From Moraxella nasovis (lineage in GTDB: Bacteria > Pseudomonadota > Gammaproteobacteria > Pseudomonadales > Moraxellaceae), in NCBI RefSeq assembly GCF_022701215.1, contig NZ_CP089976.1, forward strand, positions 990,001 through 1,022,000: DNA of 32,000 bases, read 5' to 3'. Shown here piece by piece: positions 10,462-16,399 of the stretch. The position numbers were made by a program, and so were the translations under genes. Every line of letters starts with the position of its first letter. The first letter of the stretch is position 1. A model generated the notes under the pieces. It had not been told where the DNA came from. It did no database searches and saw nothing but the letters and a program-made list of their open reading frames with translations.

Positions 10462-12969
10462 TCAAACATCTATTTTATCAAATTCATCTCGCCCCACCAC
10501 CGTATTATAAAGCCCCACCTTGTCTTTGTGTCTGTCTAGCCCTGTGTATTCTAGACTACTGTCTTCATAGCGTTTAAATTTATATACCGCATCATTCATC
10601 AGACTGCCATTAAAGACATTTAGGCGGTTTAGCAGAGCAAAATCTGATTGCGTAAGACCTGTTACACGGCGAAATAAATCAGGTTCAAGCTGGGTAATCA
10701 CATCTTCTAGACAATGCTCACGATAATCGGTCAGATACATAAATATGGGTATGCGTGTGGCGAATTTGATGAGTTTTTCTTGGATTTGTTTGCGAAGCGA
10801 TTTGTATTCTTTTTCTTCATCGCTAAGTTCTTTTTTCTCTTTGGGTGTCAGCTCATCGCCTTTTTCTTTTTTTGTTTTTGCCACGTTTTCAGATTTATTG
10901 ATGATTGTCTCAATGTCTTGGTTTAGACTTCTAAATCCTTCAATACCCATTAAAGCTTTCATCGCTTTATCATCATTCATCAGCCGTGTCAATGTGTCGT
11001 TATCCACATTAACAAGTAAAGCACTCTCCCACCGCCGTGCCAAAAGTGTGGCAGTCGTGCCACTCATCGCCATGTCTAGAACGCCGCCTGCATCTATCTG
11101 CTTCATCGTGCTACCATCATAGGCAAGCACAGGCAAAAAGCGGATAAACTCACCCACCTTTTGTTCAGGATTGGTGTTCGTGTTGTCCAACCGACAGCTG
11201 TATTCAGCGATTTGGCGTAAGGCTCTATTGGGAGCAAAATCAAAGACATAGCACTGCTCTTTTAAGATGGTCTCGCCATGTGGGTCGGTGGGGTCATAGT
11301 TTTTAAGCACCCAAGGGGTCTGCACCCGAAATGCCGCCTGAAAATAAGTCTCTGGGCTTGTGGTATTACGGAGCATAAAAATCCCCGTCCACGGAGCGAC
11401 CGATACGCCTGTGGTGAGCTTACCGCAGGAGAGCGTGATGGTCTTGGTGGTCAAAGGATTGCTGCCCATCGCCTGCTGTACAGGGGGCAAGGCTTCTACA
11501 CCAATACCTGCCTGCGTGCCTGCACAGACGATAATTTTATACTCATGAAAAAACTGATTTTGTTTTTGGGCCAATAAATTATTCATCGCAAAACAGCTCG
11601 CCACAGATGGCAAAAACCAAAAAGTATGCAGTAGCCCATTTTTTAGATGCACATCACTAAATGGCATGGGCGGTTTTTTTGCCCCCATTTTTAGGGTGTC
11701 TACGGTCATCTCAGGCAGTTTGTTTTGGATAAATTCTAGCCAGCGTTGCACTTCGTTCTCATGGATAAACCGTGCCGTATCGCCATCACCTGTCGCACGA
11801 AAAAACTCATTTAAATCAAATTCATTAAACTCGCCTTTCTTTGCCACATCACGAATGCTATCAGGGAGCTGATAGGTCATCATCACCATCTTGGGTAGTG
11901 ATAAATACGGATTTTTGCCGTATGTGTCGTCCCACTCGGCTTTGGCTTTTTGTTCGTCTGAATACGTCCAGTTAAAAATCTGCTCTTCAATAAATTCGCC
12001 TGACGACATCGCCCGAAATGGCGTGCCTGACAAATACAAATAGTGGTCTGTGGTAATCGGCAAAAGCTCTTGGTCAAAGTCTTTTAAAAATGAGCTTTCG
12101 GCAAATTCTTGCTCTTTTTTGTCGGTTTCGCCATCAAATAAATCACGAGCATTCTCACGCCACGCCCCATAATGATATTCATCAAAAATCACGCAGTCCC
12201 AATTTAGGGCGTGTACCCATTCATTTTTGGCTTTGATACCGCCTGATCTGGTTTTGCCCAAAAAGTCTTGAAATGACCCAAAGCAGACAATCGGGCGATT
12301 TTTATCCGCCGTGTCAATCGTCAAATCGCTGTTTTTGCTGATGAACTGCCAACCTACAAAATCCACATGGCTTTTTAGGTCATTTTCCCAAGCATCTTGC
12401 ACCGCAGGCTTGAACGTCAAAATCAGTATACGCTCCCAACCCATCGCACGGGCAAGCTGATAACTGGCAAAAGTCTTGCCAAATCGCATTTTGGCATTCC
12501 ACAAAAATCTGGGCGATTTGCCATGATTGGCAGGCTCTGCCGAAAAACTCTCAAAATACGCCTTGGTGCGTGCCACCGCCTGTGCCTGCTCAGGACGTAG
12601 CCCAAAATCTGCCGTGCGCCTGTCCGCCATCGCCTTGCCTGTCTTAACAGTCAAAAATGCCGAATGGACATCGTCTAGTGTGCAAGCGAACCACTCGCCA
12701 TTTGGTCTGTCAAAACCCATCTTAATCAGGGCTTGATGAATGGCATGGTCGCTAAATGTCGTGCCGTCATCACGAACCGCCAGCTCATCAAAGACAATCC
12801 GCCAGCTCTGGCGTGGTGTGGCAATCGGATACTGTGCCTGCACACGTTCCAAGGCGGTCTTGGTGGTGTAGCCGACCTTGATACAGCCGTCAAACCGCTC
12901 ATCGGTATAGGCATAAATGCGGGGTGGGTTTAGGGTGTCGGTGAGATTGACGGGGGTTTGTGGGTTCAT
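10462..12969 (-). CDS. T5orf172/GIY-YIG-like N-terminal domain fused to an SF2 (ResIII/DEAD-like) helicase; candidate effector of the island operon
   Basis: 835 aa. Residues ~17-100, RIYAYTDERFDGCIKVGYTTKTALERVQ...GEWF, match the T5orf172 (MUG113, GIY-YIG superfamily) pattern. The helicase has motif I AKMRFGKTF (~158-167), motif II VIFDEYH (~260-266) and motif III LSGTPFRA (~313-320). The C-terminal region has a charged coiled-coil-like stretch, KEKGDELTPKEKKELSDEEKEYKSLRKQIQEK. The ATG overlaps the upstream stop (ATGA). Confidence 0.8.
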   Translation of the reverse strand: MNPQTPVNLTDTLNPPRIYAYTDERFDGCIKVGYTTKTALERVQAQYPIATPRQSWRIVFDELAVRDDGTTFSDHAIHQALIKMGFDRPNGEWFACTLDDVHSAFLTVKTGKAMADRRTADFGLRPEQAQAVARTKAYFESFSAEPANHGKSPRFLWNAKMRFGKTFASYQLARAMGWERILILTFKPAVQDAWENDLKSHVDFVGWQFISKNSDLTIDTADKNRPIVCFGSFQDFLGKTRSGGIKAKNEWVHALNWDCVIFDEYHYGAWRENARDLFDGETDKKEQEFAESSFLKDFDQELLPITTDHYLYLSGTPFRAMSSGEFIEEQIFNWTYSDEQKAKAEWDDTYGKNPYLSLPKMVMMTYQLPDSIRDVAKKGEFNEFDLNEFFRATGDGDTARFIHENEVQRWLEFIQNKLPEMTVDTLKMGAKKPPMPFSDVHLKNGLLHTFWFLPSVASCFAMNNLLAQKQNQFFHEYKIIVCAGTQAGIGVEALPPVQQAMGSNPLTTKTITLSCGKLTTGVSVAPWTGIFMLRNTTSPETYFQAAFRVQTPWVLKNYDPTDPHGETILKEQCYVFDFAPNRALRQIAEYSCRLDNTNTNPEQKVGEFIRFLPVLAYDGSTMKQIDAGGVLDMAMSGTTATLLARRWESALLVNVDNDTLTRLMNDDKAMKALMGIEGFRSLNQDIETIINKSENVAKTKKEKGDELTPKEKKELSDEEKEYKSLRKQIQEKLIKFATRIPIFMYLTDYREHCLEDVITQLEPDLFRRVTGLTQSDFALLNRLNVFNGSLMNDAVYKFKRYEDSSLEYTGLDRHKDKVGLYNTVVGRDEFDKIDV

Positions 12970-13647
12970 TGGGTTTTTCTCGCTTTTAAGAAAAATTCAA
13001 TTTCATCATTTTGAACTTTTTGATGATAAAAATTTAAAAAATCTTGTTCAAGATATTTATGACCATCTAATAAAAAAGGAATATGATTTCCCAAATCATT
13101 TGGCGAGATAATTAAATCTAATTTATCCGTCAATTCATTTTTATCCAAAAATTCTTGAACAATTTGTGTCGTTGTGGGATTACTATATAAATCAAATTCT
13201 TGATAATTTAATCCATCAATTGACGCCAGTTCTTTTCGTTTTTCGTATTTAAAGTCTTGAATAACATCTTGACAAAATTCCTTAAAATTTTCAAAATCTG
13301 TTGGCTTTTTAATCGCTTTTGTTGATAAAATAGAAACCTGTCGGAATTTGCTTTTATCTGACAAATCTCTAATATAAAAACATTTTTTTGCTATTTCTAT
13401 TACGAATTTCTTTTGGTGGATAATCCACATAAAATTCACAATTATCCAAATCAAAATGCTGTTTTAACTCATCTCTACCGCTATAAAAACAGCTTAAAAA
13501 ATCTTTTAAATCCAAAATATCATCAGCATTAGTAACAATACCGCCCAAATTTTGCTCGGCATTATCCCTAATAGATTGAAAATGTTTAACTAGATTAGTT
13601 TGATTAAAAGATACATTGCGTGTTTTTAACGTATAATTTTTACTCAT
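12966..13647 (-). pseudogene. unknown-function gene (~226 aa if intact) split by a frameshift at an A7 tract
   Basis: The N-terminal part (ATG 13647, MSKNYTLKTRNVSF...EIRNRNSKKMFLY*) stops at 13369. The C-terminal part continues in the +1 frame to 12966 (...KKCFYIRDLSDKSKF...KARKTQ*). With A6 instead of A7 at 13383-13389 the two parts join as ...NSKKCFYIRDL.... I recognise no domain. Confidence 0.6.
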
Positions 13648-15175
13648 TTTCAAGCTCCATCGGTCTAACCATCTTTTCAATAAAAGCAATCTCATCATCA
13701 GATAAACCATATTTTTGATACAATTCATCATCTGTCCACGATTTTGAAAAGTCTTGCATAGGTACGAATTGATAAACTTTTTGAGTTCCATCTTGTGTAT
13801 TCTTTTTAAGTAGAACCAAAAAGCGGAAAAATCTTGTACTAATATAAGACATTACATTTTTGCAAATTTGTTCATTTTCAAATGTTCCAATAACTAAATA
13901 AGTTTCTGTACAAGCTGTATTTGGTTTACCCAAAAATGGTTTTCCTAATACCCAAAAATTAGATGAAATTCTTTCCCCATAAGCTCTTGCAATATAAACT
14001 TTATACTGATTAACCCAATTTCTATTCCTATCTATATCATTTAAACTTATATAATTTATACCATCGCTTGTATACAATTCAACACTGTTACTATTTGATT
14101 TTGATTGTCCACGATATGATGTAGAAAAACCGAATGGCTTTCTTGAACTAACCAAATTTGAAAAACTTTTTTCTTTAAAATTTTTAATCTTTCTTAATAT
14201 AGAAATTGCCTGATTAAAACGAATAAAAGTTTCAGTGCCATCTTCTTTTAAATATCTATTCATTCTTGAAACAATACTATTTCCTTCAATGGTTTCCACC
14301 AAGCAAGTTCCAGAGTGGCTCTTATCCCACAAAAAATAAGAAACCCCGCCTGAAATATCCACGCCTGGAAAGCAATCATTTGAATCAATATAATCAACCA
14401 AAACTTTTAGACGTCTATCATTTAGCATTTCATCACGAAATTCATCAAGCCCTTTTCCACCTGCAAACCAACGACTAGGCGTAATCATAATCAGATAATG
14501 CGGATTTAATTTTTTGGCTTGCTGGATAAATTTATGATAAATAGGCGTGGCACTTGCAGAAGCACCACCATCCGATAATTGATACGGCGGATTACCAATA
14601 ATTACATCAAATTTCATTTTACTAATTTCCAATTCATAAAAAGATGGGTGGATAAATGCATACGCATGGGTCTCAAATTCATGCTCACGGCTGATACTGC
14701 CGTTACTTTTGTCATAGACATCTTGACTTGCTCCACAGGCTGTGCATTTGCCGTTTTGCCATGTATGCTCGCTTTGGGGGAAAAAGATATTGCCATCATT
14801 ATCATCAAATGCTGTACAAATGCTGTATTCTCCCCCTGCTCGCTTGGCACAATAGACGCTCCGCCGTGATAATAGAGCGGTCAGATGTGTGATGGCGATA
14901 CCGTAGAGTTGCTGGCTAAATATATGATTGAGCCGTTCTTGTAGGTCTGGGATTTGGTGTTCTAAGCCTTTGATGAGACGTTTGGTGATTTCTCGTAGGA
15001 ATACACCTGATTTGCAGACAGGATCCAAAAATGTCGTGTTTGGATTTTCAAATAATGCCTGGGGCAGTCTGTCCAATATTTCATTGACGAGCTTTGGCGG
15101 GGTAAAAACTTCATCATTGGATAAATTGGCAAGGCATTCCAAAACGTCTGGGTTGTAATTGATTAAATCACTCAT
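13640..15175 (-). CDS. N6-adenine DNA methyltransferase, gamma-class Eco57I-like, with a large C-terminal putative target-recognition region
   Basis: 511 aa. It has N-terminal DEVFTPPKLVNEILD, motif I variant FLDPVCKSGVFL, and motif IV FDVIIGNPPYQL (NPPY at residues 195-198, nt ~14582-14593). About 310 aa follow motif IV. Confidence 0.85.
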   Translation of the reverse strand: MSDLINYNPDVLECLANLSNDEVFTPPKLVNEILDRLPQALFENPNTTFLDPVCKSGVFLREITKRLIKGLEHQIPDLQERLNHIFSQQLYGIAITHLTALLSRRSVYCAKRAGGEYSICTAFDDNDGNIFFPQSEHTWQNGKCTACGASQDVYDKSNGSISREHEFETHAYAFIHPSFYELEISKMKFDVIIGNPPYQLSDGGASASATPIYHKFIQQAKKLNPHYLIMITPSRWFAGGKGLDEFRDEMLNDRRLKVLVDYIDSNDCFPGVDISGGVSYFLWDKSHSGTCLVETIEGNSIVSRMNRYLKEDGTETFIRFNQAISILRKIKNFKEKSFSNLVSSRKPFGFSTSYRGQSKSNSNSVELYTSDGINYISLNDIDRNRNWVNQYKVYIARAYGERISSNFWVLGKPFLGKPNTACTETYLVIGTFENEQICKNVMSYISTRFFRFLVLLKKNTQDGTQKVYQFVPMQDFSKSWTDDELYQKYGLSDDEIAFIEKMVRPMELENE

Positions 15176-15861
15176 TTTTTATACTCCTTGTCGCTTAAAT
15201 CAATATCCAAAAAATACACAGGCGGGTATTCTTTTATCGGCTCAGGGATATAAGCGTCATCGCCCAAATCCGAAAATAACGGCAATTCACGCTCGCTGGA
15301 TTTATTGATTAAATCAGGATAGACATATTCACGGCGTATCATATCCGTGCCAAGCATTGACCATTCACTAAACACAATGGGCGTGCCGTCTTTCTGCTTT
15401 AATGATAAAGCATCTCCACATAAGATATTTTTTGATAATAAAAAACGTGCCACGTCTATACAGCGTGGGTTAATGTTTTTAAAATGAGATGAGTAATGAT
15501 TTTGAAAAATCGCTAATAACCGCTCACGACATTCAGCGACATTGTCAGCCAACAGCTCAATACCATAAATGGAGCTAATGGCGGTAATGGCGTTTAATTC
15601 GTAGTTGTATTGAATTTTTTTGTGTTTTTGGTAAATGGCGGTAAGTTTTCGCTGTAATATCACCGCAAGAAAATTCCCCGTACCACAGGCAGGCTCTAAA
15701 AAGGTGGCTTCGGGGTCGGTGCATTGGTGAGCGACCAAATCAAGCATGGCATTGACTTCACGCTCATTTGTATAAACTTCGCCATGGTCTTTGATACGCT
15801 CACGAGACTTGGTCTGAGATGGGGACTGGGGGTGTGTTTGAGTGGCTGATTTAACTTGCAT
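15172..15861 (-). CDS. methyltransferase-like SAM-binding protein lacking the catalytic (D/N/S)PP(Y/F/W) motif
   Basis: 229 aa. It has GEVYTNEREVNAMLDLV (like the GEVFTP helix), canonical motif I FLEPACGTGNFL, motif II/III-like YGIELLADNV, and ILCGDALS. I could find no NPPY-type tetrad in the sequence. Its stop overlaps the next ATG (ATGA). Confidence 0.7.
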   Translation of the reverse strand: MQVKSATQTHPQSPSQTKSRERIKDHGEVYTNEREVNAMLDLVAHQCTDPEATFLEPACGTGNFLAVILQRKLTAIYQKHKKIQYNYELNAITAISSIYGIELLADNVAECRERLLAIFQNHYSSHFKNINPRCIDVARFLLSKNILCGDALSLKQKDGTPIVFSEWSMLGTDMIRREYVYPDLINKSSERELPLFSDLGDDAYIPEPIKEYPPVYFLDIDLSDKEYKK

Positions 15862-15952
15862 GGGATTGCCCCGTGCAGGTCAGATGGTTTGCTAAATGAG
15901 ATAAGAATGGGGTATGATGGGATACTAAGAGATTTTGGGTATGGCTTAGACT

Positions 15953-16106
15953 AGGTACGCAGGTACGCAGGTACGCAGGTACGCAGGTACGCAGGTACGC
16001 AGGTACGCAGGTACGCAGGTACGCAGGTACGCAGGTACGCAGGTACGCAGGTACGCAGGTACGCAGGTACGCAGGTACGCAGGTACGCAGGTACGCAGGT
16101 ACGCAG
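15953..16106. repeat. perfect tandem octanucleotide repeat (AGGTACGC)x19 plus a partial unit; the minus-strand unit is GCGTACCT
   Basis: Counted directly: units start at 15953 + 8k for k = 0 to 18, with no substitutions. It lies 92 nt upstream of the first ATG of the island operon (15861). Confidence 0.97.
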
Positions 16107-16178
16107 AGCATTATAGCGGGCAAATACAGCCTGTCAAGACAATACATGACAATTTCCAATAAAAAGTGAGAAAACTTG

Positions 16179-16371: not shown

Positions 16372-16399
16372 AAAAACCAAGCACATAGACTTGGTTTTT
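16372..16399 (-). terminator. Rho-independent terminator after guaA
   Basis: The minus strand reads AACCAAG-TCTATGTG-CTTGGTT followed by TTTTTT, immediately 3' of the guaA stop. Confidence 0.65.

Follow-up and report, generated by a model that had tools for sequence, protein, structure and literature searches.

How might a perfect tandem repeat, lying outside of any annotated gene, govern the expression of the operon that follows it? This question is raised by a locus of Moraxella nasovis at which nineteen copies of an octanucleotide precede a predicted methylase/helicase defence operon. The phase variation of restriction-modification (R-M) systems is already well known, and such switching is usually recognized by a repeat within the coding sequence of the methylase. 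In M. nasovis the annotation leaves the repeat "intergenic", yet its effect appears to be exerted by way of the reading frame. What would be new at this locus is a repeat in a leader ORF that is coupled to the methylase start. A first-pass annotation of the window (the whole stretch of 32,000 nucleotides that was analyzed) had proposed the array as a candidate phase or expression switch, and this proposal is now strongly backed by a comparison with relatives, in which a leader repeat is present in all the host-associated lineages examined (12/12) and the copy number is hypervariable in one lineage with an identical M1 protein. It had further held that any effect must be exerted on transcription, on leader RNA structure or on the number of binding sites; this is probably wrong, because a leader ORF reads through the array. 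We consider it reasonably likely that the array lies in a translated leader ORF and acts, by way of the reading frame, as a stochastic on/off switch of the methylase/helicase operon. What the sequences show directly is the array itself, a frame architecture that is conserved, a hairpin predicted at the start site, leaders that are C-rich or terminator-like, and a hypervariable copy number in a sister lineage.

The Repeat Array and Its Operon

The array, (AGGTACGC)x19.25, occupies positions 15953-16106. Tandem Repeats Finder reports it with a period of 8, 19.2 copies, 100% matches, no indels and a score of 308, and both direct reading and a regular expression reproduce the same coordinates, which bears out the perfect 19-copy repeat of an 8-nt unit that had been claimed. 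No other substantial simple-sequence repeat exists within the 32-kb window. Since the downstream genes sit on the minus strand, the unit is to be read on the operon strand as GCGTACCT or CTGCGTAC, and the array as (CTGCGTAC)19 followed by CT, with all three sense frames open. A unit that is not a multiple of three, perfect tandem copies and a position relevant to expression are the marks of a simple-sequence contingency locus, and the array has all of these. Upstream of it lie guaA (GMP synthase, 17968-16406) and the guaA terminator (16372-16399); downstream, a unique leader of 91 nt (15862-15952) separates it from the ATG of the first operon gene (15861-15859). The earlier placement of the repeat within a long leader is right. 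The features of the leader and of the operon whose coordinates are given here are all on the minus strand.

The array is followed by a four-gene operon consisting of M1, M2, gene X and a T5orf172-helicase gene, in which adjacent genes share a few bases, the arrangement seen in translationally coupled operons. M1 (15172-15861) encodes a short, MmeI-type methyltransferase-like protein of 229 aa that retains the SAM-binding motif I, FLEPACGTGNF; an alignment revealed no N/DPP[YFW] (NPPY-type) motif either in M1 or in its homologues of ~210-230 aa, and M1 may be a non-catalytic partner. The family to which it belongs is widespread, with at least 8000 matches at E <= 1e-10. The homology search returned a M. 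nasovis protein 100% identical to M1; look-ups of M1, M2 and GuaA as exact proteins gave no match. M2 (13640-15175), the start of which overlaps the M1 stop (ATGA), is a protein of 511 aa predicted from its domain to be an Eco57I-type N6-adenine methyltransferase. The last gene (10462-12969) specifies a protein of 835 aa that joins a T5orf172 (GIY-YIG-like) domain to an SF2 helicase and is presumed to be the restriction or effector component. In searches with Pfam and PADLOC, the operon gave MmeI_Mtase, Eco57I and T5orf172 + ResIII domains, and its best PADLOC model was REase_MTase_IIG, a fused Type IIG helicase-methylase that is here split. The same searches found no Mod/Res subunit families of Type III systems and no HsdM/S/R families of Type I systems in the operon, and no NCBIfam family reached its cut-off for any of the operon proteins.

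Gene X (12966-13791) is present in the window as two ORFs (13791-13369 and 13454-12966), and its homologues are single genes of ~220 aa. These match the window through residues 7-81 in one frame (13635-13414) and through residues 80-220 in another (13397-12969); hence X is frameshifted in the window, close to a run of seven A at 13383-13389. The split may mean that X is a pseudogene, that slippage occurs at a second site here, or that the sequence contains an error. Gene X is reduced or absent in Canicola haemoglobinophilus and Neisseria zoodegmatis, and at two Neisseriaceae loci (L039 7875-8444; L043 8047-8616) X and the helicase gene are separated by an inserted HigB-like toxin/HTH antitoxin pair, encoded on the opposite strand.

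Repeats in Related Operons

Species-representative genomes were scanned for three units of the octamer, and the DNA around M1 homologues was fetched. The octamer scan revealed 12 copies in M. cuniculi, again downstream of guaA, and 6 copies in a Moraxella metagenome-assembled genome (MAG L003), both in the same layout, with M1 and M2 proteins just 51-66% identical to those of the window. The host-associated lineages examined, from Moraxella, the Neisseriaceae and the Pasteurellaceae, have a repeat between the promoter and M1 without exception, and among these 12 lineages eight distinct units occur: GCGTACCT, GCGTGCCT, GCACACCT, TTCAGCG, CTGT, ACGC, GTTGC and CCTG. The units are 8, 7, 5 or 4 nt long and none of these lengths is divisible by 3. 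Thus, M. caviae has about 11 copies of GCGTGCCT, M. haemolytica about 14 of GCACACCT, Moraxella sp. L037 about 15 of TTCAGCG and M. marmotae about 32 of CTGT; in the other families, Canicola haemoglobinophilus has 20 copies of ACGC, Neisseriaceae bacterium B1 about 18 of GTTGC, Neisseria zoodegmatis 21 of CCTG, and a sewage Neisseriaceae about 4 of CCTG, with a longer allele in L047. The operon is found at different chromosomal sites among these relatives, and the repeat always comes after a promoter-like element and before M1.

Ten assemblies of the P0098 lineage, which has a (GTTCAGC)n array, encode M1 proteins that are 100% identical among themselves and have near-identical flanks, and their arrays contain 7, 7, 8, 10, 11, 13, 14, 14, 15 and 16 copies. 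An orthologous locus is thereby directly shown to be hypervariable; M. nasovis is represented by one genome, and the copy-number variation is that of its sister lineage. Among the relatives from environmental metagenomes (44-54% identity) for which at least 150 nt of upstream sequence was available, the repeat was detected in 0 of 75, by a detector that had been validated on the positive loci and from short-read assemblies, which tend to break at repeats.

Reading Frames across the Leader

The TGA at 15882-15880, which had been described as an in-frame stop upstream of the M1 ATG, is real, and the conclusion that an upstream ORF cannot fuse to M1 is correct for the M. nasovis genome. However, a leader ORF crosses the array and one of its frames ends overlapping the M1 ATG, so that copy number can act via the frame without any fusion. 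At 19 copies this leader ORF (15851-16147) has 98 aa, with in-frame ATGs at 16147-16145 and 16111-16109 and a TAA stop at 15853-15851, 8 nt into M1. Since the unit is 8 nt long, each unit gained or lost shifts its frame. Past the array, the first of the two short frames meets a TAG at 15953-15951 and the second a TAA at 15948-15946 (the two together, at 15946-15953, form a conserved motif, TAG-NN-TAR), while the long frame continues for 100 nt to the TAA within M1. An ORF that begins at either of the ATGs enters the long frame at n = 19, and likewise at 16, 22 and 25, and a short frame otherwise.

This architecture recurs among the relatives. Both short frames close within 30 nt past the array in 12/12 lineages, seven of which display the motif TAG-NN-TAR or TAA-NN-TAA, and in all 12 the third frame carries on as far as M1, staying free of stops for 80-130 nt (35 nt in Canicola). 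In 11 of the 12 the stop of the long frame lies at +1, +5 or +8 relative to the M1 ATG, a stop that overlaps or abuts the downstream start being what is expected of a coupled uORF; in Canicola, the twelfth, the long frame is the M1 frame itself and the repeat lies in an N-terminal extension of M1, as in the classic in-ORF design. The distance from TAG to ATG in five Moraxella lineages is 92, 80, 104, 104 and 113 nt, always 2 modulo 3 in spite of the divergence of their leaders. When each leader was subjected to dinucleotide shuffling, the full frame architecture arose by chance with a probability of 0.06-0.20 per lineage; the joint chance is about 10^-4, counting just four lineage groups as independent, and such statistics are not fully independent because the lineages are related by descent. 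Two simpler tests were discarded. The mere existence of some stop-free frame is too weak a criterion (P = 0.16-0.8 per species), because the leaders are G-poor, and the full architecture test was used in its place; that the repeat units are stop-free is uninformative, because they are GC-rich.

We infer that the leader ORF of M. nasovis is translated, that it is coupled to M1, that transcription can terminate prematurely in the leader and that the locus actually switches. In either of the short frames, a ribosome would stop at the end of the array or at most 5 nt past it (TAG 15953, TAA 15948) and the operon would be off. In the long frame (n = 16, 19, 22 and so on), it would cross the 91-nt C-rich leader and terminate at the TAA at 15853-15851. 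Only this long-frame ribosome would melt the hairpin holding the M1 Shine-Dalgarno sequence and ATG, permitting a coupled initiation or reinitiation, and by keeping the leader covered it would also prevent premature transcription termination, which would probably be Rho-dependent in M. nasovis and would rely on intrinsic hairpin-plus-T-run terminators in several of the relatives. Because all of the operon genes overlap, the ON or OFF state would be propagated to M1, M2, X and the helicase-nuclease. Under this scheme the 19-copy allele of the window is predicted to be ON. Counting from the array-proximal ATG, Moraxella sp. L037, the sewage Neisseriaceae and 3 of 9 P0098 alleles are likewise predicted to be ON and the rest OFF, a share close to the one-third expected without selection.

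Some relatives have a recognizable start for such a leader ORF: a canonical Shine-Dalgarno sequence and start codon are spaced as AAGGA-N8-ATG in Canicola, as AGGAA-N3-ATG in M. caviae and as AGGA-N8-GTG in M. marmotae. Moreover, gene callers have independently annotated the leader ORF in L037 and in L040-L052, where the long frame happens to apply.

Structure of the Leader RNA

Folding predicts a hairpin at 15852-15882 (-12.6 kcal/mol, z = -2.5) that encloses the Shine-Dalgarno sequence of M1 (GGGG, 15874-15871) together with its ATG, and the 5' arm of this hairpin falls in the 3' end of the leader ORF, within the long frame. In the window its stability is just moderate, and M1 has a Shine-Dalgarno sequence of its own. 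A corresponding hairpin around the M1 Shine-Dalgarno and ATG was predicted in 11/11 of the lineages folded, with z from -1.8 to -6.1; its pairs were 76% paired, against 30-49% in slid controls, with modest covariation. RNAalifold, run on an ungapped alignment, recovered the inner stem only, because the register shifts between lineages. These predictions suggest that the ribosome-binding site of M1 is sequestered in a structure that a ribosome on the uORF would open.

The unique leader is rich in C and poor in G (31 C and 10 G among its 91 nt), is without a stop in the long frame and is a candidate region for Rho loading; similarly C-rich, G-poor leaders are found in MAG L003 and in Canicola. 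No intrinsic terminator was found in the window's leader. In five relatives (M. cuniculi, M. caviae, M. haemolytica, Moraxella sp. L037 and Neisseriaceae B1) the long frame does contain terminator-like hairpins with T-runs, and a similar one was recognized, by eye only, in the P0098 lineage. The leader gave no match in Rfam.

The RNA of the array itself pairs, according to folding, just with itself, as a long imperfect hairpin of about -0.39 kcal/mol per nt, and this self-folded RNA might be a substrate of RNase III. Folding detected no effect of copy number on the M1 start, the predicted accessibility of which was 0.38 for every n from 0 to 30. The idea that the array RNA masks the M1 start is consequently not supported: no pairing between array and start site appeared on folding, and M. 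haemolytica and L037 lack the complementarity.

Promoters and the Start of the Leader Transcript

It had been stated that TTGGTT-17-TAGAAT was the only reasonable sigma70 match in the region. This does not stand: a promoter, P2, with 12/12 matches to the sigma70 consensus lies at 16110-16137 (TTGACA at 16137-16132, a 16-nt spacer and TATAAT at 16115-16110). P2 is on the operon strand, its end being just 3 nt from the array, and its predicted transcription start, about 16104-16102, is inside the first repeat unit. A P2-like geometry (TTGnnn, 16-17 nt, nAnnnT, with unrelated spacers) can be read from the sequences of all 12 lineages and abuts the array in 11 of them; the exception is M. marmotae, where the P2-like element is ~85 nt upstream of the array. 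In 7/12 lineages the -10 hexamer overlaps an ATG (TATAATG, CATAATG, CAAAATG, GATAATG or CATCATG).

In the window, this arrangement is in conflict with the start of the leader ORF. Because the P2 -10 overlaps the proximal ATG (TATAATG) and transcription would start inside the array, P2 transcripts would lack both leader-ORF ATGs, which lie upstream of the predicted start and have a poor Shine-Dalgarno sequence or none. The sole upstream promoter candidate in the window is P1 (16179-16207), the TTGGTT (16207-16202) and TAGAAT (16184-16179) of the earlier claim, 17 nt apart and with a TG at 16187-16186 that makes an extended -10. P1 is weak, with 3/6 matches in its -35, and falls below the threshold of the promoter scanner; a transcript from it would carry the leader-ORF ATGs, and its string, ATGATAGAAT, is also conserved in MAG L003. 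Comparable upstream candidates exist in M. caviae (TTGACT-17-TACAAT, followed by AGGAA and ATG) and in Canicola (TATAAT, followed by AAGGA and ATG). In M. marmotae the array is further downstream and a Shine-Dalgarno sequence with GTG comes after the P2-like promoter, so that the conflict does not arise there.

The M. marmotae locus (L031 5759-5888) has no array directly after its P2-like promoter. Upstream of its new (CTGT)32 array lies a homologue of the window's post-array leader (ccaaaatctcttag), which carries the AGGA-N8-GTG; a repeat can therefore be lost and re-created elsewhere in the same leader ORF.

The position of P2 invites a different explanation, in which the repeat is part of an untranslated 5' UTR that begins in its first unit, and copy number tunes expression gradually and independently of frame, through the length, structure or stability of the RNA, RNase III or Rho loading. 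In its favour are the perfect promoter 3 nt from the array, the recurrence of this geometry in 12 lineages, abutting in 11, the self-folding of the array RNA as a possible RNase III substrate, and the precedent of hmw1A/hmw2A in Haemophilus influenzae. There, a transcribed (ATCTTTC)n repeat in the 5' UTR pairs with a G-rich partner to form a long hairpin, which is cut by RNase III and results in graded expression (PMC12721329). The two systems have in common a repeat of 7-8 nt between promoter and gene. No hmw-type pairing with a complementary downstream region was found here, however: a complementary G-rich arm is lacking, the leader having 10 G of 91, the array folds on itself, and the units GCACACCT, CTGT and TTCAGCG are by inspection not obviously self-complementary. 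Unlike hmw, the present locus has a conserved frame architecture, and a change in copy number is predicted to leave the M1 start unaffected, with an accessibility constant for n = 0 to 30 and no pairing of array to start site. An untranslated repeat also leaves unexplained why two stops come right after the array and a third frame reaches M1 in 12/12 lineages, why the leader indels are in multiples of three, why no unit is divisible by 3 and why Canicola has an in-frame fusion. We therefore judge a purely untranslated repeat to be unlikely, though by no means a negligible possibility.

If the array is instead a frame-dependent switch within a translated leader, two ways out of the promoter conflict are possible. 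The productive mRNA could come from an upstream promoter, with P2 making an attenuated leader RNA; or P2 could serve to keep the repeat transcribed. At hmw, transcription through the repeat is required for a change in copy number (PMC12721329), which by analogy would be one possible reason for a strong promoter to abut the array here. The strong promoter initiates within the repeat, the leader ORF ahead of it, and this opposition poses a testable puzzle as to how transcription, translation and repeat instability are linked.

An action at the DNA level, with the array setting how far the promoter is from a downstream operator or how many binding sites lie between them, or supplying methylase target sites that feed back on the promoter, seems to us very improbable. 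The array does begin at about +1 of a strong promoter, and it is general knowledge that R-M systems often autoregulate. But the operon has no conserved regulator gene, the frame architecture would remain unexplained, and the sequence and length of the unit differ wholly between lineages, so there is no common binding site.

Octamer Arrays at Other Loci

The octamer is not an element specific to this operon, an idea that was entertained and rejected: at 27 loci in other phyla, arrays of it flank unrelated genes and no operon homologues are present. These arrays have 5-14 copies and often lie 35-120 nt upstream of genes (for example L005 5915-5978, L024 1602-1641, L026 6685-6796 and L015 5163-5250). 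Those of a Saprospiraceae MAG are found ahead of the genes for a reprolysin-like peptidase and for a GH16 protein that has a T9SS sorting domain, Treponema has one such locus, and in Paraburkholderia the array is located between a sigma factor gene and clpP. They may be independent contingency loci unconnected to the methylase-helicase operon. Such loci demonstrate that arrays can arise anywhere, but a neutral microsatellite with no regulatory role is scarcely credible here, given the same operon position in 12 lineages with eight units, the absence from 75 environmental homologues and the conserved flanking architecture.

Comparison with Known Systems

A precedent for coupling may be lex2A/lex2B. 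For the AGAT repeat in the 5' UTR of M. catarrhalis uspA2, Attia and Hansen reportedly proposed, in 2006, a graded 5'-UTR mechanism. The uspA2 and modO loci of M. catarrhalis belong to the same genus as ours and have a repeat in the 5' UTR (uspA2) or upstream of the annotated methylase start (modO); they differ in their genes and units, and leader-ORF coupling is not described for them in the literature examined. The modO repeat is (CAACG)n, upstream of the annotated methylase ORF (PMC6241649).

The phase-variable R-M methyltransferases (phasevarions) include the Type III mod genes (modA, modM and others), the Type I hsdM/hsdS and the Type IIG cj0031 of Campylobacter jejuni (PMC5909438, PMC7383803, PMC4889913). 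They resemble the present locus, as we interpret it, in having a unit length indivisible by 3, a host-adapted mucosal bacterium, a DNA methyltransferase operon controlled by frameshifting and hypervariable copy numbers. They differ in that the phasevarion repeat is inside the methylase ORF, whereas here, Canicola excepted, it is in a separate leader ORF that overlaps the methylase start. They differ also in kind, the operon described here being neither Type I nor Type III but a split methylase with a T5orf172-helicase, of which the methylase activity is predicted.

Control by a uORF or leader peptide is exemplified by tnaC-tnaA, where translation of the leader decides the action of a terminator or of Rho and the opening of the downstream start (PMC12360218). 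In systems of that type the state is set by a metabolite or by ribosome stalling, whereas here, we propose, it is set by a heritable mutation in repeat length.

The nearest described gene cluster appears, from the accessible text, to be DnmA-YeeB-YeeC of Bacillus subtilis and Vibrio crassostreae (PMC9973331). By domain content, it and the PADLOC model PDLC03626 'REase_MTase_IIG' resemble our operon in placing a nuclease-less methylase of MmeI/Eco57I type beside an SF2 helicase and a T5orf172/GIY-YIG domain, as far as that text allows the comparison. On the same basis they are distinguished by the short M1 that precedes the methylase here and by the fusion of helicase and T5orf172 in a single protein of 835 aa; the accessible part of PMC9973331 says nothing of phase variation. 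In H. influenzae biogroup aegyptius F3031, a (CAAG)32 tract, for which no mechanism was given, precedes an 'adenine specific methylase homologue' by 58 bp (PMC2651432); this locus may belong with our operon to one family.

Our literature search found no paper that prints two units of the repeat, none in which phase-variable R-M is connected to leader peptides or to translational coupling, none that describes phase variation in this operon family, and none that describes the coupling of an R-M operon to a leader ORF with a repeat in it. Surveys confined to the interiors of annotated genes would miss loci of this sort. If the frame-dependent switch is true, a new class of methylase-helicase defence system enters the phase-variable repertoire of animal airway bacteria, with consequences for phage defence, for DNA uptake and possibly for epigenetic regulation. 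More speculatively, and as a conjecture that we would not press, the whole could be a portable "stochastic attenuator" cassette, in which a near-consensus promoter fires into a repeat, perhaps driving its instability, and the frame of the leader ORF decides both anti-termination and coupling; such a cassette would have endured in the Moraxellaceae, Neisseriaceae and Pasteurellaceae through at least eight turnovers of its repeat unit.

Sequence Relations of the Repeat Units

The unit ACCUGCGU is complementary to AUGCAGGU in relatives. The unit ACCTGCG resembles the 5' arm of the M1 hairpin (ACCTGCA; 15872-15878 in the window) and would pair, with one G.U, with AUGCAGGU at the M1 start of the relatives, and a CCTG core is common to 5/8 of the repeat units. 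The arrays may have arisen from the hairpin arm or be related to it. Some 30-40 nt before its array, the P0098 lineage (L133-L142) has a poly-A run that separates a candidate upstream -10 (TATAAT) from the upstream in-frame ATG; this run has 6, 7 or 8 A, depending on the assembly, and is possibly a second variable tract.
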